In this document: positions 4,555 to 19,796 of the stretch, one piece after another
How positions within the stretch are numbered: the stretch's first letter is position 1
Layout: every line of letters starts with the position of its first letter
DNA from: a virus
IMG/VR virus record: IMGVR_UViG_3300033181_000085
Coordinates: 9,669-73,668 of that record
Reading direction: 5' to 3' (one strand)
Length of the DNA: 64,000 nt
Notes under the pieces: model-generated
What the model was told of the DNA's origin: nothing
Seen by the model: the letters and a program-made list of their open reading frames with translations, nothing else
Database searches by the model: none
Made by a program: the position numbers and the translations under genes

Positions 4555-4730
4555 TAATTGTTAAGCCCTTCTTTTATGCTTAGTTCTAAGGTCGCCATCC
4601 ACCGTATAGTCGCGCCGACACTGATATTTTGGCCGGTGCGTTTTTTGATGTATTCTGCTCGACGCTGCAAGGCTCTGAAAGTTTCGTCATCAACTCTCGG
4701 TTTGTGTATCTTGGTCACTTGGTCGCTCAC
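4554..4730 (-). CDS. Small RHH-like DNA-binding protein (58 aa)
   Basis: GTG 4730 overlaps the upstream stop; HKPRVDDETFRALQRRA…ISVGATIRW. Confidence 0.5.
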   Translation of the reverse strand: MSDQVTKIHKPRVDDETFRALQRRAEYIKKRTGQNISVGATIRWMATLELSIKEGLNN

Positions 4731-4918
4731 GCTATCCTCGCTACCTTTTGTCCGAGAAAATTGAGGTGCAGGACATTTAGATTGCAGTTTTCGCACCACA
4801 CCTGCAGACCTAGTTTCGTAAAACCGACTGCCAACTTGCCCGACATACAATTGCGACAATGCATATATGTACTAATCTGTAAGTCGTCAGGTTTAGGGTT
4901 AGTTTCTTCTTTGCTCAT
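4727..4918 (-). CDS. Small Zn-ribbon protein (HCRNC…WCENC)
   Basis: Two CxxC motifs; coupled ORF. Confidence 0.65.
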   Translation of the reverse strand: MSKEETNPKPDDLQISTYMHCRNCMSGKLAVGFTKLGLQVWCENCNLNVLHLNFLGQKVARIA

Positions 4919-5223
4919 TTCACCGTCTCTGCCAATTTCTTAAAGAATTTCCACGGCATATCACCTATTTCAGCACTATCGTAGCCTTCAAGGTTTTCCA
5001 TACCGTCCTTCATTCCGAGCGTCAGGAAACATGCAGGCGAACAAACGTCAAAGTATTTATAGCTCTCGCAACTGTCATTGCCCCATCCGCTATGGGCACG
5101 GCTATAGTTGAACCAAGTCTCTTCGTAAACGGTGTAGTCATTCTCAATAGCGCCGCAGTTATCGCACTTGTGGCCGACAACGGTTTTCTTAAAAACTTGT
5201 TTCTGCTCTGTGATCTCGCTCAT
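4915..5223 (-). CDS. Phage hypothetical with CDNC / CSPAC motifs
   Basis: Coupled ORF with SD. Confidence 0.65.
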   Translation of the reverse strand: MSEITEQKQVFKKTVVGHKCDNCGAIENDYTVYEETWFNYSRAHSGWGNDSCESYKYFDVCSPACFLTLGMKDGMENLEGYDSAEIGDMPWKFFKKLAETVK

Positions 5224-5333
5224 ACACCTCCTGACATCTCAGTAATATTCAAAGTTCATGCCGCTTCGTTTATCGATCTCGACCTTGATTCGTTGTGGGC
5301 GCGTGGTTCGCTTCGTTTGCTTTATGCGTATTT

Positions 5334-5702
5334 TCATCGTTCAAGCTCCCGACATACACCGTTTATAAGCTCTGCTAGCTTTTCGGTCGTAATATTTGTG
5401 CCAAGGTTCAACTTCTCGCCAACGTAACCCGCAAACTTTTCAGTACCATTCAGCTCAAAGCCGAACATGCCGAAGTGCGATACTGCTACAAAGAGATCGG
5501 TCATGGAGTGCATACCTCGTTGCAGGTGGCCGTATTGTAGAGGCTTGTATGCCAGCAGAATATCTAGTTGCGTCCCTTCCTGATCGGTCCAGGCGAAGAT
5601 TATAGGGTCGTGGTTGCTTAAGTGGCTTGCAAGACCTTTATATGTCTTTTCGCTATTGAATACCGTCTGATATTCGTCCTGGTCAACGGTAGCCGGGTTC
5701 AT
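5334..5702 (-). CDS. Phage hypothetical protein
   Basis: 122-aa ORF, ATGA overlap upstream. Confidence 0.6.
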   Translation of the reverse strand: MNPATVDQDEYQTVFNSEKTYKGLASHLSNHDPIIFAWTDQEGTQLDILLAYKPLQYGHLQRGMHSMTDLFVAVSHFGMFGFELNGTEKFAGYVGEKLNLGTNITTEKLAELINGVCRELER

Positions 5703-5798
5703 TTGACGCTAATCCTAATCTGCCCTAAGTACCCATTTTTGACTCTCGCTAATATCTCGTCACGCATCTTCCATCCCTTCTCATTGTTATCTTCAGCA

Positions 5799-5947
5799 CA
5801 CAGTACTCCCGACGGTTACACGGCACCATGGTCTCGGGCTGGTAACAAGCAATCACGCAAGGTGACTGAGTTTGACCCGCGACCGCTGATACTACGTTCG
5901 GCGGCTTACTGGGTGGGGTTGCGCCCATAACTGCCGGGAATACTGTG
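5799..5947 (-). ncRNA. Candidate structured ncRNA / cis-regulatory RNA (~150 nt)
   Basis: 15-bp closing stem 5933-5947/5799-5813 with G-U pairs only on the minus strand; internal hairpins; intergenic. Confidence 0.5.
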
Positions 5948-5962
5948 GGTTGAATTGTTAAA

Positions 5963-6172
5963 CTACGCTCCTAAAAATTCTGCTATGTTGTTCAGTTCTT
6001 CTGTAACGTGTCCGAGGCTGCCGACATCGGACCAGTTCTTTGGCCTGCCGTCATTGTGGTATTCGTTGACCTTATTCTTTATGGCTGCAAGCACATCCAG
6101 TATTTCTTGGTAGTCTTGCTCGAAGGCTTCTTGAGCTGTTTGCTGGGGTTGTGATTCGGGGGTGTGTTCCAT
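5963..6172 (-). CDS. Phage hypothetical helical protein (…PKNWSDVGSLGHVTEELNNIAEFLG)
   Basis: ORF from ATG 6172. Confidence 0.6.
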   Translation of the reverse strand: MEHTPESQPQQTAQEAFEQDYQEILDVLAAIKNKVNEYHNDGRPKNWSDVGSLGHVTEELNNIAEFLGA

Positions 6173-6574
6173 GCGGGGTTCCTGATTAGGGTGATACGTT
6201 GAACTCCAGTGCACGTCGCCAGCGGTAATGCTCGCTGCATAGTTTTGCTTACGCCAGGTGTTATCGTTATGTGCGAGGCACGCCCGACAACTAGCACTTG
6301 GTTTCCTGAATACGTCTGCTCTGATTACTACTGACGATGTGAGCTGGAGTTGTTAATGAACTTGGTTCTTTGGCTGTTCACGAGTCGAACGTGATTACTT
6401 CCTTTCAGCCCATGTGAGCATTTTTCTGCCTTACTCGGGGCGGTAGTCTATCGTAATACCGGCATGTAGCCACGGCTGATTAAATCTGCTAGCTCATAAA
6501 CTGTGACTTGCCCTGTGTATTTCCCTTGCGCGTTTTTCATGTCGTGTTCCTTTCGTTTATTTGTCTATAAACTA

Positions 6575-6618
6575 ATACTATATGTTGCATTAACATATGT
6601 CAACATGCATTAACATAT
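6575..6618 (-). promoter_or_regulatory. Strong leftward promoter TTGACA-17-TAGTAT with tandem 13-bp operators
   Basis: -35 6598-6603, -10 6575-6580; tgcattaacatat at 6586-6598 and 6606-6618. Confidence 0.75.
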
Positions 6619-6652
6619 ACAATAGATATTCCTGTGCATAACTTTAGACACC

Positions 6653-6677
6653 AAAAAACCGCCCTGAGTAGGCGGTT
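6653..6677 (-). terminator. Rho-independent terminator
   Basis: aaccgcc/ggcggtt stem plus U-run on the minus strand. Confidence 0.65.
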
Positions 6678-6765
6678 CGTTACTGTTTGACGTTTGTCTC
6701 GATTACTCTCGCAGGGTGATCCAGACCCTTCTATTGTATCAAGTATCAGTCAGTTTTACATTGAT

Positions 6766-8007
6766 TTACTCAAGCATAATTTCTACACATTACGTGCTAC
6801 TATGTAACGATGAAACAGAAGCGAGCCTATAGATATCGATTTTATCCAACTGTCCAACAAACGCAGCTCTTTGCGCGAACATTTGGCAGTTGTCGGTATG
6901 TCTATAACTGGGCGCTCCGTCTGCGCACTGATGCATATTATGACAGGCAGGAACGGTTATACTACTCAGATCTTTCTGCAGCACTTACAGGACTAAAAAA
7001 GCAGGATGATAAGGTATGGCTCAACGAAGTATCATCTGTTACCTTACAACAGACTTTGCGTAATCTAGATAGAGCACTTCTCAATTTCTTCGCTCGGCGT
7101 AACGAGTACCCTAACTTTAGAAAGAAGTGTAACCGTCAATCTGCTGAGTTAACTGGATCTGCTTTCAAGTGGGATGGAGAACAGTTATTCCTGGCTAAAA
7201 TGGGTGGCCCACTCGCTATCCGTTGGTCGCGCCCTCTGCCGGAAGGCAGTAGACCAACCACTGTTAGTGTCTCTAAGGATACGGCCGACCGCTATTTCGT
7301 ATCGATCCTAGTCGAACAGGATATTACACACTTGCCCACCAATGAGAATACCGTGGGTGCTGACCTAGGTCTGAAAGACTTCGTAGCCTTATCTACCGGT
7401 GAGAAGATAGGCAATCCCAAATTCTTCACTAAAGACGAGAAAAATCTTGCGAAGGCTCAGGGACGTCATGCTAAGAAGCAGCCTAGTTCTAACAATCGAA
7501 ACAAGGCTCGCCTCAAAGTTGCTCGCATCCATGCTCGTATAGCCGACCGCCGCCGTGACTTCCTGCACAAGCTCTCGACGCGCTTGATCCGTGAAAACCA
7601 AACGGTCTGCGTGGAGAGTTTGTCGGTGAAGAACATGGTGCATAACCGAAGCCTTAGTAAGGCTATTAGTGACGTTGGATGGGGTGAGTTTATTTCGTTA
7701 TTGGAATATAAGGCTGAGTGGTACGGTAGGCATCTCGTCAAAATTGACAAGTGGTACCCTTCCAGCAAACGCTGTTTCAATTGTGGACATATTCTTAACT
7801 CCTTAACACTTGATGTAAGACATTGGACATGTCCTGAATGTGGCATTGTCCATGATCGCGATGTTAATGCAGCTATGAATATAAAAGCGGCAGGGCTTGC
7901 CGTTTACAATGCTTCTGGAGAGGCTGTAAGACCTGGGCGGATTCGTTCCAATCGGGCACGCCTCAATGAAGGAAGAATCCCTAGCTTTCAAGCAAGGTGA
8001 ACGTCAC
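6766..8007 (+). mobile_element. TnpA-less IS200/IS605-family (IS1341-like) element
   Basis: TTGAT immediately 5' (6761-6765), TCAC at the 3' end (8004-8007); removing it restores an in-frame gene end. Confidence 0.65.
6810..8000 (+). CDS. tnpB: RNA-guided endonuclease TnpB (IS605-type)
   Basis: RAYRYRFYPT N-terminus, RuvC GADLG / VCVESL / HDRDVNAA, Zn finger CFNC…CPEC. Confidence 0.95.
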   Translation: MKQKRAYRYRFYPTVQQTQLFARTFGSCRYVYNWALRLRTDAYYDRQERLYYSDLSAALTGLKKQDDKVWLNEVSSVTLQQTLRNLDRALLNFFARRNEYPNFRKKCNRQSAELTGSAFKWDGEQLFLAKMGGPLAIRWSRPLPEGSRPTTVSVSKDTADRYFVSILVEQDITHLPTNENTVGADLGLKDFVALSTGEKIGNPKFFTKDEKNLAKAQGRHAKKQPSSNNRNKARLKVARIHARIADRRRDFLHKLSTRLIRENQTVCVESLSVKNMVHNRSLSKAISDVGWGEFISLLEYKAEWYGRHLVKIDKWYPSSKRCFNCGHILNSLTLDVRHWTCPECGIVHDRDVNAAMNIKAAGLAVYNASGEAVRPGRIRSNRARLNEGRIPSFQAR

Positions 8008-8315
8008 TGTATCAGAAGACAGAATCCGATAAAGACAATAAGTATCATCAGACCGAAAACGAAGTTAAAGACGTGGTAGGCGGCAGCGGTGACAAGGATA
8101 GCAGTCACGCCGAGAGCTCCCATGATTATAGCCGTTTCGGTTTTAGACAGTATCGGTTGGGATACTGGTAAGGTCTGGCGTGACGTTGCTGGCTGGCGAC
8201 GTGTAGTCGGACGTGGATTCGGTAGCTGACGGCTGGATGTCCGTGGTTTGACCGTTTTCGATATTTTGCGACGCGTGTGTTTCTGCATAATGCCTGCATA
8301 TGTAGTATATGGCAT
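8004..8315 (-). CDS. Small membrane protein (true start possibly internal)
   Basis: Hydrophobic C-terminal helices; its stop codon is supplied by the IS end. Confidence 0.45.
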   Translation of the reverse strand: MPYTTYAGIMQKHTRRKISKTVKPRTSSRQLPNPRPTTRRQPATSRQTLPVSQPILSKTETAIIMGALGVTAILVTAAAYHVFNFVFGLMILIVFIGFCLLIQ

Positions 8316-14249: not shown

Positions 14250-15257
14250 ATGGACAAAGATTCACCACGAGACGGCAGTCAAAGCTCGCTACTTAATGGT
14301 AGGCAACCAGAAAATAAGGCCGTAACTAATCCTGGCATGTCTGGCCGTCCAACTGACGAGCAAGCAGAGTCATCGGTTGCTACGCAAACTAAACAGACAC
14401 TAACTACTGCTCAGGCAGCTGTCGTCAAAATGCAGGGTGACGTGATGAAATTCGTGACCAAGATGCTCGGTACTGAAAAGGCTCAAGAGTATGCTACTCG
14501 CGTTGCCCTCATTGCCCGCGATAACCCGAAGCTAGCTTATGCTATCCAGAAGAACCCTGAAAGCTTCTTGACGGCATTCATGGCCAGTGCTGAGCGCGAC
14601 CTCATGCCGAATACCTCTAAGGGTCTAGCCTATCTGATACCTTATGGAGATAAAGTCCAGTTCCAAGTTGGCTATCCCGGCCTACTACTGGAGGCCAGGC
14701 GTACCGGCGAGATTATGACGATTGATGCTGAGAACGTTATTAAAGGTGATACGTTTGAGTACACTCTTGGCACTGAACGTAAGGTTGTTCATAGGCCTGC
14801 CGATGATGTTGACCGGACTAAATACGATGCTATCACCCACGTTTATGCCACAGCTAAGCTTACTAATGGTGAGCACCCCTTCATAGTTCTAACCAAAAAG
14901 GAACTGGATAAAGTCAAGGCGACTGCCAAAGCTAGCAGCACCGACTCTCCGTGGCACACTTGGCCGGAGCGCCAAGCTATCAAGACCGCCTACAAACGAC
15001 TCGCTAAGGTACTACCATCTGAGCGTATGCAACGGGCAGCCTATCTCGATGATCTAGCTGAGGCCGGTAAGCTACGCTTTGATCGTGAAAAAGGTGAGTT
15101 TATCGAGGGTGAGTTGGCTGAGGTATCATCTGAGACACGCGATGCGATAGATAACGCCACGAGTACTGAGGAACTACAGACAATCTTAAACGGCCTATCG
15201 ACGACTGAGCGGAAGAAAGCTGCAAGCCTAGTGGCTGAGAGAATGAAGGCGCTCTAG
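14250..15257 (+). CDS. recT: RecT-family single-strand annealing recombinase
   Basis: GLAYLIPYG…QFQVGYPGLLL…DTFEYTLG…SPWHTWPERQAIKT. Confidence 0.9.
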   Translation: MDKDSPRDGSQSSLLNGRQPENKAVTNPGMSGRPTDEQAESSVATQTKQTLTTAQAAVVKMQGDVMKFVTKMLGTEKAQEYATRVALIARDNPKLAYAIQKNPESFLTAFMASAERDLMPNTSKGLAYLIPYGDKVQFQVGYPGLLLEARRTGEIMTIDAENVIKGDTFEYTLGTERKVVHRPADDVDRTKYDAITHVYATAKLTNGEHPFIVLTKKELDKVKATAKASSTDSPWHTWPERQAIKTAYKRLAKVLPSERMQRAAYLDDLAEAGKLRFDREKGEFIEGELAEVSSETRDAIDNATSTEELQTILNGLSTTERKKAASLVAERMKAL

Positions 15258-15775
15258 TGAATAAAATAGCCCGTAGTATAGGAGCGGAGCGATTCAAGTC
15301 ACTCTTTGAATATAATCTATTTAAGGGCAAGCTCTACTGGAAGAACGTATCGAAATATCATCTAAATAGAAACGGTCTAGAGGCGGGATTCCCCAGGCGG
15401 GATAGTAATAAGCCGGATAAGTACTACTGGATAGTTAAGATAGACCGTCACCCAATTAAACGAGCAACTATAATCTATGCCCTCGCTACTAGTATCATAC
15501 CTGATCTCATAGACCACAAAGATGGTAACAGTCTCAATGATTCGATCCACAATCTCAGAGAAGCCACACATGAACAGAATAGTTGGAATAGGAAAATTGG
15601 TAAGCCAGGTAGAGATCTACCTATGGGAATTAGGCTAATAAAATCTTCTGGACGTTATCAAGCCCGCATCACCCATAGAAACAAATTGATACCGCTGGGC
15701 ACTTTCAGCACTGTTAATGACGCACAGAATGCTTATCTAGAGAAGAGGAAGGAGCTATTTGGTGAATTCGCATAG
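15257..15775 (+). CDS. HNH homing endonuclease between recT and the exonuclease gene
   Basis: IDHKDGNSLNDSIHNLREATHEQNSWN; LGTFSTVNDAQNAY. Confidence 0.9.
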   Translation: MNKIARSIGAERFKSLFEYNLFKGKLYWKNVSKYHLNRNGLEAGFPRRDSNKPDKYYWIVKIDRHPIKRATIIYALATSIIPDLIDHKDGNSLNDSIHNLREATHEQNSWNRKIGKPGRDLPMGIRLIKSSGRYQARITHRNKLIPLGTFSTVNDAQNAYLEKRKELFGEFA

Positions 15776-16445
15776 TATCGCTACTGAAATTGTAGCTGAG
15801 CAGCGGACAGAGAACTGGTATGCCGCTAGGCTAGGCCGTGCCACTGCTTCCAAATTCTACGACATCATCGCTGGCACCAAGAACGGCTATGCGGCAACCC
15901 GAAAGAACTATCGCGCCGAGCTGGTAATTGAGCGACTGACTGGCCAAAGCATTGACACCTTTCAGAATGCTGCGATGTCCTGGGGAAATGATACGGAGGA
16001 TCTGGCCCGCACAACCTATATGCTAGAGACTGGAAACGTTGCTGATACCTGCGGTTTCTACGCCCATAACGAAATCATGGCAGGTGCCTCACCTGATGGA
16101 TTGATCGGTGATGACGGAACTATCGAGATCAAGTCACCAAACCCTGCTACACACATCGAGACATTACGGCTTGGTTCAATTCCCACAAAATACGTGCCGC
16201 AAGTCCAGGGACAACTTTGGATGACCGGCCGCAAGTGGTGCGACTTCATCAGCTTCGATCCTCGGTTACCGCAAAACGCCCAGTTGTTCATCCAGCGTAT
16301 TGAACGCGACAACAAGTACATTGCCTATCTGGAAACAGAGGTCATTAAGTTTTTGGTTGAAGTCGATGAAGAAGTTAAGTTTGTGCAGGAATACCACGCA
16401 CCAATAATTACATCTAAACTACGAGAGGAGCCCGCCCATGTCTAA
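15759..16445 (+). CDS. YqaJ / lambda-exonuclease family protein
   Basis: EQRTENWYAARLGRATAS…GASPDGLI…IEIKSP…QVQGQLW. Confidence 0.9.
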   Translation: MVNSHSIATEIVAEQRTENWYAARLGRATASKFYDIIAGTKNGYAATRKNYRAELVIERLTGQSIDTFQNAAMSWGNDTEDLARTTYMLETGNVADTCGFYAHNEIMAGASPDGLIGDDGTIEIKSPNPATHIETLRLGSIPTKYVPQVQGQLWMTGRKWCDFISFDPRLPQNAQLFIQRIERDNKYIAYLETEVIKFLVEVDEEVKFVQEYHAPIITSKLREEPAHV

Positions 16446-16671
16446 CCAACCATTCAGTATCGCCCGTATGGGTTCCAAAGCATTTCTCGACGACACGGCG
16501 GATATGCACAACGGTAAAGACTACGACTGGGTGATCGATGCCATGGCTAAGCTGAAGACCGGAGAAATGACTAAAAAAGAGATGGTCAAGGCCATGAACA
16601 TTACCGCACCGACTTTGGACAAGTACATATTCATTATTAATTTGGAACGGGTGCAGCAGCATGGAAAGTAA
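16438..16671 (+). CDS. Small HTH DNA-binding protein
   Basis: MTKKEMVKAMNITAPTLDKY helix-turn-helix. Confidence 0.6.
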   Translation: MSNQPFSIARMGSKAFLDDTADMHNGKDYDWVIDAMAKLKTGEMTKKEMVKAMNITAPTLDKYIFIINLERVQQHGK

Positions 16672-16674
16672 ATC

Positions 16675-16878
16675 ATGAACAATGAACACCACGACGGGAC
16701 TAGCCACAGATTTTTTCTGTTTGAAACTAAGACCACGTTTGAACCTTACGCTATCGACAACGAAATAGTAAACGTAGCGTCGGAGCCTTTATATTTAAAA
16801 GTCGATTATGCCATTCTATCCTGTAATTGTGGTGAAGTTATTAGGCGAAAAGTGCGGAAAGAAGATCATGACGCCTGA
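16675..16878 (+). CDS. Small phage hypothetical
   Basis: Coupled ORF, CNCG motif. Confidence 0.55.
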   Translation: MNNEHHDGTSHRFFLFETKTTFEPYAIDNEIVNVASEPLYLKVDYAILSCNCGEVIRRKVRKEDHDA

Positions 16879-17284
16879 CCAGGAACCCCGCCTAGTCGAG
16901 AAAGTCCGCACCTTTGACCACGACATCCAGAAGTTTGAATCGAATATTAAAAACCTCAAAGAGATGGCTAAAGAGGCCGTCGAGAAACTGCCAGAACATG
17001 ATGAAGTCGAACGGCTGCAAGAAGAGTTGAAGGTAGCCCGTGAAGCGTTGAAGCAATCAACTTTACGCATGCCAGGCTATAACGACCTACTGAGCCAACT
17101 GGCCGATGAAAAGGATGCGCTCAAAAATGCACGGTTGAACCTGTCGGACTTCCTGCTGGGGTACTTCAAAGAGACAGGTGCGCAACAAATTGAGTTGGAA
17201 CCTCATGATACAAGAGATGTGGTACTCAAGGGAAGACTAGGAAAAGCTAAAGACAATCAGGTATCTATGTTTCACAAGCAATAA
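16868..17284 (+). CDS. Coiled-coil phage protein ('gene X') whose 3' end is duplicated beyond TnpB
   Basis: ATG 16868; C-terminus YFKETG…ELEPHDTRDVVLKGRLGKAKDNQVSMF. Confidence 0.75.
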   Translation: MTPDQEPRLVEKVRTFDHDIQKFESNIKNLKEMAKEAVEKLPEHDEVERLQEELKVAREALKQSTLRMPGYNDLLSQLADEKDALKNARLNLSDFLLGYFKETGAQQIELEPHDTRDVVLKGRLGKAKDNQVSMFHKQ

Positions 17285-17346
17285 AAATGACATATAAACT
17301 CTTAAAAGAGGGTTACAAAATAACAAATAATTTGTAGAATAAGATC

Positions 17347-18519
17347 ATGGAAATAAGAAGAGCTTACCGCGTCCGCATCTACCCCAACAAGGAACAGCAG
17401 CAATCCATGTTGCGGACTATTGGTGCCTGCCGCTGGGTATATAACCACTACCTCGAAGAGCGAAAAAACTACTATCTAGAGACAAAGAAGACACTACCTC
17501 TTAAATTGATGTCGGCGGATTTAACGAAGTTGCGTAGAGAGATGGACTGGTTAAGTGGTGTGAGACTAGCACCATTACAACAGTCAATTCGTTGCCTTGA
17601 TGTAGCATATAATCGATTCTTCCGCAAAGAGGCAGGTTTCCCTAAGTTCAAAAGTAGGAAAGACTGCAAGCAAACATTTCGCAAGCCGAACAAATGGCGT
17701 ATAGAGGGTAAAAAACTCTTAATCCAGTCGGACATATTTGTACGAGCTAGAGGAAAACTACCGCCAAGTAATGCCAAGCTCGGCACCCTTACTATATTCA
17801 CCACCAGAACCGGCAAGTGGTACGCATCCATCAAGTCTACCGAATATACAGAAACCCCAACCGAGCGCACGCCACCCATCGGCATCGACCTCGGTCTCAC
17901 CCATATAGCCATCACCAGTGACGGTAAGAAGTACGATAATCTAACTTTTGCTAAAAAACAGACTAAGCGAATGAAACAGCTCCAACAATCTCTCCGTCGC
18001 AAGCAAAGTGATAGTAATCGCCGCGAGAAAACCAGGTTAAAATTTGCCCGTTTACATGAGAAGATTGCCAACCAGCGCATGAATTATCTACACCAGGTCA
18101 GTAGTGCAATCACCAGCAAGAACCACGCTTTGATTGCAGTAGAGGACTTGGCGGTAGCTAATATGCTAAAGAATCATAGCCTAGCAAGATCGATTGGCGA
18201 CGTAGGCTGGTATGACCTATCGAAACAGATTGAATATAAACAGAAATGGAGCGGTGGCCAGTTCTTCAGGGTCGATAGGTTTTTCCCATCGAGCAAGACT
18301 TGCTCAAACTGCTATTTTGTACGGCAATCTATGTCGCTGGATGCAAGGGAATGGACATGCGAGCGGTGTAGCACTGGGCATGACCGCGACATAAACGCAG
18401 CTAAAAACATATTAAAACAAGCTGAGGTACAGCTTGGCGTGGAGGGTACAGATGGTAGCCGTAAGGTGAGAGTTACTGGCTCAGTGAAGCGCGGATATTC
18501 TATGGGGGTAACCCTGTGA
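17347..18519 (+). CDS. tnpB: RNA-guided endonuclease TnpB (second copy)
   Basis: RRAYRVRIYPN, RuvC GIDLG / IAVEDL / HDRDINAA, Zn finger CSNC…CERC. Confidence 0.95.
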   Translation: MEIRRAYRVRIYPNKEQQQSMLRTIGACRWVYNHYLEERKNYYLETKKTLPLKLMSADLTKLRREMDWLSGVRLAPLQQSIRCLDVAYNRFFRKEAGFPKFKSRKDCKQTFRKPNKWRIEGKKLLIQSDIFVRARGKLPPSNAKLGTLTIFTTRTGKWYASIKSTEYTETPTERTPPIGIDLGLTHIAITSDGKKYDNLTFAKKQTKRMKQLQQSLRRKQSDSNRREKTRLKFARLHEKIANQRMNYLHQVSSAITSKNHALIAVEDLAVANMLKNHSLARSIGDVGWYDLSKQIEYKQKWSGGQFFRVDRFFPSSKTCSNCYFVRQSMSLDAREWTCERCSTGHDRDINAAKNILKQAEVQLGVEGTDGSRKVRVTGSVKRGYSMGVTL

Positions 18520-18522
18520 ATA

Positions 18523-18665
18523 ATTCCTATTCCATGAGACCGGTGTTTGCCATACCAACCTATGAACTTGAGCCCAAAGATGCCAGGGAGGTTATCTTGA
18601 AAGGGAGGCTGGGGAAGGCGAAAGAGTTTCAAACTAATTTGTTCCGACAGGAGAACACAACATGA
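18523..18665 (+). pseudogene. Displaced 3' end of gene X (…ELEPKDAREVILKGRLGKAKEFQTNLFRQENTT*)
   Basis: 16/20 aa identical to 17192-17251; its TGA overlaps the ATG of the next gene (18662). Confidence 0.8.
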
Positions 18666-18961
18666 GCAATGCACAAAGCGACGATCTAGCTTCTTGGCAG
18701 AAATTTATAGGAGTCTTGTTATTTGTAGGTGCTATAACTGCCGCTATTTTCCTTGGTATTAGGTGGCTTAGGCATACAGATGACCAGTATGTGAAAACAA
18801 ACCCCTATCACTACATAGCTGCATATTGTTGGCCAAATAACGAGAAGTGCCAATATCAAGATTACCGGGGATCGCAACCGACCTGTCCTGAATACTATAC
18901 TTGGCAAGACACGGGTGCTGTAGTGAAGCTCGAAGCAGGGACATGTAAGGTTTCGAGATGA
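18662..18961 (+). CDS. Single-TM membrane protein
   Basis: Hydrophobic helix, Cys-rich C-terminus. Confidence 0.6.
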   Translation: MSNAQSDDLASWQKFIGVLLFVGAITAAIFLGIRWLRHTDDQYVKTNPYHYIAAYCWPNNEKCQYQDYRGSQPTCPEYYTWQDTGAVVKLEAGTCKVSR

Positions 18962-19199
18962 GCAAACCCTATTATTCAGCAGAATGCCTGCGTTGCAGTT
19001 TGAAGACTCGAAAGCTGCCCCCACGATCAAAAAAGGCCAAACCGTCTATGCAACCATCCCAGGCACCACTAACAGAAATCCTATGCGCGTTGCGAACGTC
19101 ACAAAGCAAGGTGAGTAACTAGAGTTGGAGGAGGCATGAATACGCCACCATAACCTGCAAGTAGCAGATGCATTAATCAACTAAACGAGGAACCATCAT

Positions 19200-19796
19200 A
19201 TGACCATCAAACAAGTAGCCGAAGCAGTTAAAGCCAACCCGAAGCGGATACAGGCCGCTCTCGTCGCCATTGTGCTCATTTCAACGACTGCCGCTGTTGC
19301 TATGCCGCATATCGCTCACGCTGGCAGTCCATCAGCATCAACTCCAGATAATGGTACACAAAACCAAGAGCAAAATATCACGGAGCAGAATCAGGCAACG
19401 CTTGACAAGAACCAGCCAATTCCTCAACTGACCCACTCGCTTGAACGAGACAACCTCATCAAGAAACTGAACTTTACGAATAATGCTAACCAACTGGGCT
19501 ACGTGTATTTACTCGGCTTAAACGGCAGTGTTATCGCCAGCTATACCGTCAAAGGTAAAGTCAGTTCGCTTAATTCACTATTAACCACGACATCACAGAT
19601 TCAATGCCCAGGAACCAACAATAGCTGTATAACCACACCGAGTCCAGATTTAGACGGTAGCTATGGCAATAACCCAAATGGCATATTCTTCTTCACGACC
19701 ACCGGGGCGTATGTAGAATGGTCTGGCACTTATATTTACTCCAGTCAACCGTTGAATATCCAAACTCCCGTGAGCCTGACCGAACAAGTACATTAA
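19200..19796 (+). CDS. Conserved secreted phage protein (SLERDNL…GKVSSLNS…PDLDGSYG…YVEWSG)
   Basis: Signal/TM segment; recognisable uncharacterised phage family. Confidence 0.75.
   Translation: MTIKQVAEAVKANPKRIQAALVAIVLISTTAAVAMPHIAHAGSPSASTPDNGTQNQEQNITEQNQATLDKNQPIPQLTHSLERDNLIKKLNFTNNANQLGYVYLLGLNGSVIASYTVKGKVSSLNSLLTTTSQIQCPGTNNSCITTPSPDLDGSYGNNPNGIFFFTTTGAYVEWSGTYIYSSQPLNIQTPVSLTEQVH

Follow-up and report, generated by a model that had tools for sequence, protein, structure and literature searches.

A transposase-free TnpB cassette carrying a spare end for the phage gene it interrupts: a candidate RNA-guided homing element with built-in rescue

In a 64,000-nt stretch of viral DNA (bases 9669–73668 of the 79.7-kb virus record IMGVR_UViG_3300033181_000085, which was judged complete; hereafter the window), a tnpB gene lies within the 3′ part of a conserved phage gene, here called gene X, and is flanked by two copies of the end of that gene. 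Positions given for this locus are those of the window, and gene X, the recombination genes upstream of it and all parts of the insertion lie on the plus strand. The evidence leans towards an interpretation in which a TnpB-only element derived from the IS200/IS605 group acts as a free-standing RNA-guided homing cassette with built-in rescue. The inserted unit comprises a foreign copy of the last 39 codons of X with their stop codon, a 24-nt spacer, a promoter, tnpB and a guide-RNA scaffold, and it sits exactly between the Gly-Tyr and the Phe-His-Glu-Thr-Gly codons of the phage's own X. Because of this insertion point, X is completed by the foreign tail, and the original tail is left behind as a stump with the guide in its first 16 bases.

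Gene X (16868–17284) is intact and encodes a coiled-coil protein of 138 residues. Its resident 5′ part (16868–17164; codons 1–99) ends in LLGY, written ..GGG TAC, and is continued in frame by tail A (17165–17284), a replacement 3′ end of codons 100–138 plus TAA that retains the ELEP..LKGRLGK..QxxMF motifs. On the other side of tnpB, a dead copy of the last ~40 codons of X spans 18530–18665; within it, the resident stump of tail B (18564–18665; ELEPKDAREVILKGRLGKAKEFQTNLFRQENTT*) ends in a TGA (18663–18665) that overlaps the ATG of the next gene (18662). A preliminary description of this DNA had compared two 20-residue stretches of the tails (17192–17251 and 18564–18623), in which 14 of the 16 identical residues (out of 20) are encoded by different codons, and the counts hold as quoted. 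In a six-frame tblastn comparison, the 700 nt upstream of tnpB matched the 850 nt downstream at E 7e-10, and the same flank test applied to 100 mock gaps of 1.18 kb along the window gave no comparable match.

A search of 5.8 billion proteins returned 27 homologues of gene X, and their consensus C-terminus (LLGYFHETGERQIELEPKDAREVILKGRLGKxKxFQTNLF) is the sequence of the downstream stump. DNA was fetched for eight uninvaded X alleles (L003, L004/5, L008, L015, L016, L018 and L019); all eight are contiguous, share the same gene order, lack a tnpB gene after X and carry the downstream-type tail, and an upstream-type tail was seen in none of them. This bears out the preliminary description, which had named the downstream copy as the resident allele from the TGA/ATG overlap. 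Nucleotide identity of the stump to these alleles is 0.72–0.82 (29 of 30 residues are identical to L019 and 22 of 23 to P0005), and the 5′ part of the window X shows the same divergence (0.73–0.78), as against only 0.53–0.68 between tail A and every uninvaded allele and 0.61 between tail A and the stump. At the protein level, residues 41–74 of X are identical to main-clade homologues at 31 of 34 positions, and the last 23 residues of tail A agree with any of the 27 homologues at 15 positions at most (≤65%). Moreover, the GC content of third codon positions (GC3) is 0.30–0.31 in tail A vs. 0.56–0.61, with 0.61 in the resident 5′ part; the best change point falls after codon 102 (p about 0.05), the junction itself lies after codon 99, and the break is thus placed within three codons of the stump start. 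Taken together, the identity and GC3 comparisons indicate that the resident allele consists of the 5′ part and the stump, i.e., that the downstream stump is the resident main-clade tail and the upstream working tail A is foreign.

The codon differences between the two tails had been described as recoding. The codon changes themselves and the foreign, in-frame tail stand, whereas a purpose-made recoding is the less convincing reading: at identical residues, natural alleles differ in 0.30–0.83 of their codons, and 14 of 16 lies at the top of the range of distant natural alleles, not beyond it. Since distant natural pairs reach 0.79–0.83, no purpose-made recoding has to be assumed, and tail A is probably a piece of a divergent, AT-richer X allele, its nearest flavour being that of a minority group of natural alleles (P0002, P0021 and P0022). 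Between the stop codon of tail A and the conserved left end of the element lies the AT-rich spacer of 24 nt (17285–17308), in which an ATG at 17287 opens an open reading frame (ORF) of 16 codons. This ORF is possibly the stump of the donor's next gene; none of the next genes of the relatives starts like it.

TnpB itself (17347–18519; 390 residues) has intact catalytic residues, as had been noted before: D181, E266 and D348 of the RuvC site are invariant in an alignment of 22 sequences, as are C319, C322, C338 and C341, and the DLG, VEDL and HDRD motifs align. The Pfam domains HTH_OrfB_IS605, OrfB_IS605 (RuvC-bearing) and the zinc-ribbon TNB were matched at E 2.5e-18, 5e-22 and 1.3e-20, respectively, and the ISDra2 TnpB structures 8H1J and 8EXA at E 4e-63. 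The nearest relatives are 63–67% identical and located in other phage contigs; among the sibling elements retrieved are L020, L103, L104 and L022, the last on the same contig as L003. The left end of the element (17309–17346) is a sigma-70-type promoter, GTTACA-17-TAGAAT at 17312–17340, followed after 6 nt by the tnpB ATG. In the siblings L020, L022 and L103 the corresponding arrangement reads TTTACA-17-TAAGAT-6-ATG, the promoter is all that is shared on the left, and no hairpin was found at the left end of the element. With only 6 nt between the –10 box and the tnpB ATG, both in the window element and in L020, L022 and L103, the tnpB mRNA may be leaderless. A longer left end of 64–83 nt, starting after GGTAT (17259–17263), was considered and rejected, because the codons that follow, SMFHKQ, align with the natural tails QVS[LI]F[NS]QE and are thus derived from gene X. 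No match to a Y1 transposase (TnpA, PF01797) was obtained in the whole 79.7-kb genome, and for peel-and-paste transposition the element is non-autonomous at best.

The predicted guide-RNA (omega RNA) scaffold (18379–18529) overlaps the 3′ end of tnpB and closes with the right end ..ATTCCTA. Nucleotide conservation with L020, L022, L103 and L104 goes beyond coding need in this region; it extends over ..GAAGCGCGGA, a hairpin whose sequence varies, and ATKCYNA, beyond which it stops. The terminal hairpin (18496–18522), already recognised in the preliminary description as GNRA-capped, has a GUAA loop, 5+6 pairs, one bulge and two wobbles. Compensatory changes in the siblings affect five of the 29 predicted scaffold pairs, four of them in the terminal hairpin (four of five pairs changed on both sides). 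A search of 16800–18800 against Rfam at E up to 1 returned neither a family nor an intron, and the minimum free energy fold of 18380–18550 (z = –1.1) is uninformative alone. As sibling conservation ends at ATKCYNA, just behind the covarying hairpin, the right end in the window is placed at 18529, and similarity to uninvaded X starts at 18530. The guide is consequently read as the first 16 bases of the resident stump (18530–18545; TTCCATGAGACCGGTG), i.e., the codons F-H-E-T-G plus one G, which corrects the earlier guide string that began at 18523 and included 7 nt of the right end.

The corresponding site of the working copy (17165–17180) differs from this guide at positions 4, 6 and 12; these mismatches, which include seed positions, are in line with the earlier claim of a guide-resistant incoming tail. 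Among the uninvaded alleles, which are ~75% identical to the window phage overall, mismatches fall at positions 12 and 15 in L019, leaving a perfect seed of 11 nt, at 2, 3 and 15 in L004, and at 6, 12 and 15 in L015. Two exact matches to the guide in IMG/VR were discarded as chance hits in unrelated GC-rich DNA. In the working copy, the target position is immediately preceded by GGTAC (17160–17164), a candidate target-adjacent motif (TAM) of the form SSTAN, and G[GC]TAY precedes the target in eight of eight alleles, encoded by the Gly-Tyr codons of the nearly invariant LLGY (DFLLGY is near-invariant in the gene X family). In all four siblings, SSTA occurs within 11 nt of the start of the conserved left end (CGTA-G, GGTA-G, GCTA-G and CGTA-T), which corresponds to a probability of ~3e-4 at a background of 0.13 per window, calculated post hoc. 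The left end of the window element itself is flanked by TTAAAA and has no SSTA; this would be expected if tail A and the spacer belong to the inserted unit and the true boundary is GGTAC at 17160–17164. On these grounds, SSTAN is a candidate TAM of the window TnpB.

In L103 (1665–3318), the sibling element interrupts a gene but brings no rescue copy with it; the ORF upstream terminates (..LYKASGIS*) within the promoter of the element, and the reading frame of tnpB stays open across the right end, for a total of 414 residues. P0150, a homologue of the gene upstream in L103, proved unusable for fixing the left boundary and TAM, as its C-terminus diverges. Likewise, the region of G000 syntenic to L022 shares only one gene and could not be read as an empty site.

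Immediately behind the guide, a filler of 18 nt (18546–18563) replaces 11 nt of wild-type sequence (the rest of the E-R-Q-I codons) and shifts the frame of the stump. It begins after exactly 16 wild-type-like bases, its sequence is unique in the window, and resident sequence resumes at ELEP. The filler lies in the zone where TnpB of the ISDra2 type cuts. It could be a repair scar, a product of decay of the element-linked DNA past the guide, or the outcome of selection for a translated stump. The net gain of 7 nt creates an open frame through the stump (18516–18665), which starts either at a GTG (18516; GTGA overlap with the tnpB stop) or at an ATG (18534). Speculatively, this frame could couple translation to the gene at 18662 or yield a peptide of 43–49 residues with the QTNLF motif.

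On our preferred reading, the life cycle of the cassette would run as follows. When invaded and uninvaded phages infect the same cell, TnpB would be directed by its guide RNA to cut uninvaded X alleles beside the conserved G[GC]TAY flank, and the break could be repaired from the invaded genome by the phage's RecT and YqaJ functions, copying the tail together with tnpB into the rival. Genes for both proteins had been placed 1–3 kb upstream, and matches at Pfam level confirm them (RecT, 14250–15257; YqaJ, 15759–16445). The working copy would escape by its three guide mismatches, and the stump by being preceded by the scaffold end instead of a TAM. The tail of the divergent allele would have travelled with the element and, as a rescue tail, would remove the cost of occupying a conserved site in a gene with a conserved C-terminal Qxx[LM]F. 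The first such cassette might have originated by mobilisation from an upstream TAM or by recombination between two insertions. Since no Y1 transposase is encoded in the 79.7-kb genome, homing would be the only self-encoded way for the element to spread.

Apart from the window element, the flank test was run on 69 TnpB loci from metagenome contigs, 73 from IMG/VR, the second TnpB of the same genome and the sibling elements (~150 loci). A search of this kind had been proposed in the preliminary description, and duplicated gene ends are found at other tnpB loci: three further TnpB families have the same layout, in which an intact gene with a diverged copy of a segment S is followed by promoter, tnpB and scaffold and then by the original S as a stump, starting about 9–38 nt after the tnpB stop. 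In L026, a clamp-loader gene (phrog_168) is interrupted. Compared with the empty allele L199, L026 shows a single nucleotide difference over the first 89 codons and differs by ~30% from codon 90 on; L199 matches the L026 stump at 140 of 156 nt and the rescue tail at only 110 of 156, and GC3 is 0.18 in the rescue tail vs. 0.62 in the stump. The boundaries in L026 fit plain recombination between phage lineages as well as homing with crossover repair. L110 duplicates 40 nt of the end of a 51-codon gene, and L166 (= L187) lies in the head of an oppositely oriented gene, which is why its spare part is a new gene start. No close relatives of L026 or L166 were found in INPHARED.

Of special interest is the family of L187 and L194. 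The guide target of L187 is present in seven empty alleles (L188–L193 and L195) with one to three, mostly distal mismatches (only at position 18 in L192 and only at 19 in L193), each time after TACTTTAT, and the rescue copy mismatches the guide at positions 7, 8, 11, 14, 18 and 20. In L194, the same element (93.8% nucleotide identity) has settled elsewhere in this gene, behind CCATTTGT (TTTGT); it has a guide of its own and a rescue head that is shorter but starts like that of L187. The two insertion points, at codon 23 in L187 and codon 7 in L194 of the head of a 109-codon gene, each follow TTTRT. In terms of sequence, this family shows directly the logic that we propose for the window element, and it suggests that rescue cassettes can retarget. 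As to a wider claim, namely that TnpB cassettes with a linked guide-resistant gene fragment form an adapted and recurrent class of natural home-and-rescue drives in phages, we see nearly, though not quite, as much speaking for it as against it.

Further flank matches were set aside as mirrored arrangements, likely neighbouring paralogues or short repeats (L031, L112, L134 and L184). In L031 (1232–3628), a diverged gene-head fragment of 39 codons lies left of tnpB and the complete gene 230 nt to its right, with 43% identity over 30 residues, i.e., in mirrored order. In L112 (tnpB 1501–2667), a near-perfect direct DNA repeat of ~42 nt occurs ~300 nt left of tnpB and immediately 3′ of it; in one frame it encodes a 13-residue stretch with 100% identity, the other frames reaching 80–93%.

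A quite different account would see the arrangement as a passive by-product: an ordinary TnpB element located downstream of a divergent X allele elsewhere would have been joined to this genome by recombination between phage lineages, by a homologous join on the left and an aberrant one at the transposon right end, with X alleles remaining uncut and the tail restoring X by luck or selection. We consider this unlikely, with a fair number of observations to its credit. Nuclease genes have been reported at boundaries of phage genetic exchange (PMC10448857), the L026 cassette is bordered left and right by mosaic boundaries, what follows tail A as a spacer may be a remnant of the next gene of a donor, and gene X provides a single instance. 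Moreover, the left flanks of the siblings can also be read as ..RAG, which is absent from the X site. Several of our findings likewise weigh against homing. The SSTA register is uncertain by one base, and if ..RAG were the true motif, the X site would have no TAM; in L103, the interrupted gene and the right-flank ORF (46 codons, ending in an ATGA overlap) share one frame only if the boundary is set after ..GAG AAG (or ..CTA), which favours ..RAG or a register one base off. Among the sampled alleles, no naive one matches the guide perfectly, L019 coming closest with two mismatches in 16 nt, and neither a second invaded X allele nor a closer sibling of the window phage was retrieved. In L026, the foreign tract sets in 12–15 codons to the left of the point at which the stump begins, and divergence from L199 is also seen to the right of the stump. 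Furthermore, the GC3 change point in X is of marginal significance (p about 0.05), simple homing does not predict an 18-nt scar, and the importance of gene X is read from its conservation only. What tips the balance for us towards a homing cassette is that the passive account would have to place an aberrant join at precisely the right-end base four times, in independent families, that the insertion points of L187 and L194 both follow TTTRT and their guides match naive alleles, that the GC3 break in X falls so close to the stump start, and that exactly 16 nt of the target are retained intact before the scar.

The remaining explanations are considerably weaker. A tandem duplication of the tail in place, after an ordinary insertion and with later divergence of the copies, would be a simple route to flanking repeats, and divergence of the repeats would guard the element against loss through recombination; yet it is the functional upstream copy that is divergent and carries the GC3 shift, the dead copy matching relatives at 29 of 30 residues, and the two copies are less identical to each other (0.61) than the stump is to other phages (0.72–0.82). 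With the same asymmetry seen in L026 vs. L199, this origin is very improbable. Even less credit can be given to an assembly chimera of two co-occurring strains. Admittedly, the source is a rock metagenome and assemblers can be misled by repeats, but copies of 61% identity are too different to confuse an assembler, and the layout is also found in unrelated assemblies. Two Logan contig sets (18.6 kb and 75.9 kb), both from rock metagenome runs and perhaps from the source sample itself, span 16400–19400 unbroken, with 0 differences and no alternative joint, which speaks against the assembly artefact that the preliminary description had left as a concern. Finally, the stump might not be dead, providing a Qxx[LM]F peptide of 43–49 residues or carrying ribosomes from tnpB to the gene at 18662, which would add to the homing interpretation and not replace it. 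The open frame 18516–18665, overlapping tnpB by GTGA and the next gene by ATGA, and the 29 of 30 residues kept are compatible with this; against it, evidence for a ribosome-binding site is lacking, no homologous small ORF occurs in the other cassettes, and a recent insertion explains the conservation equally well, so that we regard a living stump as improbable.

Among described systems, the closest in layout are the “gene hybrids” made by mobile ORFs in fungal mitochondria, e.g., in atp6 of Allomyces macrogynus and atp6, atp9, cox2 and nad3 of Glomus (PMC3630166). Shared features are the gene core, a foreign C-terminus in frame, an endonuclease gene and the native C-terminus as a stump. In the mitochondrial cases, the native stump is 91–98% identical to relatives at the nucleotide level and the inserted copy 64–81%, one example having 63.5% between inserted and native copy and 91% between native copy and relative (PMC3630166); the corresponding values for the window cassette are 72–82% for the stump and 53–68% for the inserted tail. 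The likeness to homing endonucleases that replace gene ends, drawn in the preliminary description, is therefore supported both by the order of parts and by the nearer native stump. Membership among protein-only homing endonucleases (LAGLIDADG, GIY-YIG or HNH) is not, as tnpB is the sole gene of the cassette. In the mitochondrial cassettes, the DNA is recognised by the nuclease protein itself (of the LAGLIDADG or GIY-YIG type), whereas here the nuclease is TnpB, with its target in the first 16 bases of the stump; moreover, the cassette described here resides in a phage, and its nuclease gene comes with a promoter of its own. By analogy, the window cassette would be the RNA-guided counterpart of these C-terminal swap cassettes.

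TnpB-driven homing as such is established, and spread without TnpA into plasmids or co-infecting phages (“non-restorative homing”) has been discussed (PMC8612924; 10.1101/2023.03.14.532601; PMC13565253). With ISDra2 TnpB, the window element shares the protein family (E 4e-63 to 8H1J), a scaffold over the 3′ end of tnpB and a guide just beyond the right end, and with homing of IS200/IS605 elements the proposed repair of breaks from the occupied allele. In contrast to these elements, it has neither TnpA nor a left-end hairpin, and it carries host-gene cargo, namely the spare gene end between target and promoter, because of which insertion inside gene X does not destroy it. A description of a TnpB element with a linked rescue fragment was not found in the literature searched, subscription journals not being covered. 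The SegF, SegB and Mob endonucleases of phage T4 resemble the cassette in spreading between co-infecting phages, in the co-conversion of flanking donor sequence and in self-immunity from sequence differences in the neighbouring gene; they differ in that recognition is by protein, their genes lie between genes and no duplicated gene end is left. Elements such as e14 and phage 21 (both in icd) or those integrating into tRNA genes also supply a slightly different gene 3′ end and leave a displaced stump. These are inserted by integrase recombination at an att core, whereas no integrase lies between the two tail copies here (tnpB being the only cassette gene) and the copies have no identical att-like core, with 61% identity and three mismatches in the first 16 nt. 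IStrons, in which a self-splicing group I intron is fused to an IS200/IS605 or IS607 element, differ as well: no intron was found here, and the gene is completed by a duplicated tail instead of by splicing. In its working logic, not by descent, the cassette resembles the synthetic gene drives ClvR (cleave-and-rescue) and HomeR (home-and-rescue), a design at which engineers arrived independently and in which an RNA-guided nuclease (Cas9) acts on a needed gene in diploid animals and is linked to a cleavage-resistant rescue.

TnpB is considered ancestral to Cas12, and the role known for it is that of keeping its own transposon in place. If our interpretation is true, it is met here with no transposase at its side, in the interior of a conserved phage gene and coupled to a rescue copy of the part that it disrupted. 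Home-and-rescue cassettes would then be able to settle at conserved sites within needed genes without costing the phage anything, to carry the rescue fragment from allele to allele and to retarget to another TAM within the gene, and the window element would be a member aimed at the site between LLGY and FHETG in a clamp-motif protein of a recombination module. Confirmation would show how RNA-guided nucleases can spread between viruses without harm to them and would account for some of the abrupt mosaic boundaries seen in phage genes, e.g., the break at codon 90 in L026. In this context, the loci offer natural sets in which a guide, its target and a resistant allele are all at hand for specificity tests of TnpB, and a gene fragment duplicated across tnpB, with a stump beginning at the right end, provides a rule for finding more of them.

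As regards gene X itself, no Pfam or PHROG family matched its product. The Qxx[LM]F motif seen earlier in both tails holds throughout the family as a C-terminal Qxx[LIM]F, with Q131 invariant and F135 conserved in at least 90%, and it resembles a sliding-clamp-binding motif. The name “SbcCD ATPase” given by JGI to relatives of X looks like a coiled-coil artefact. Searches of the INPHARED phages (megablast and tblastn with the locus and gene X) gave no match, and a search of IMG/VR with gene X yielded no relatives. Upstream lies the early recombination module of the phage (14250–16445), from which two small ORFs lead to X, and the order RecT–YqaJ–small–small–X is kept in all relatives. Between RecT and YqaJ, the window carries an endonuclease gene with HNH_3 and AP2 domains (15257–15775), the GTG start of which overlaps the RecT stop; it is probably a second, protein-type homing endonuclease gene, 1.1 kb from the TnpB cassette. 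In L003 and L004/5, YqaJ follows RecT directly, and in L008 an HNH gene is found upstream of RecT instead. The second TnpB of the genome (6810–8000; 396 residues, 36% identical) has no flank duplication. In L008, an element of the IS3 type (HTH_Tnp_1 and rve) and a transposase of the IS1595 type follow directly after gene X (4555–8098), and the junction between X and the next gene seems to be a landing place for mobile DNA.

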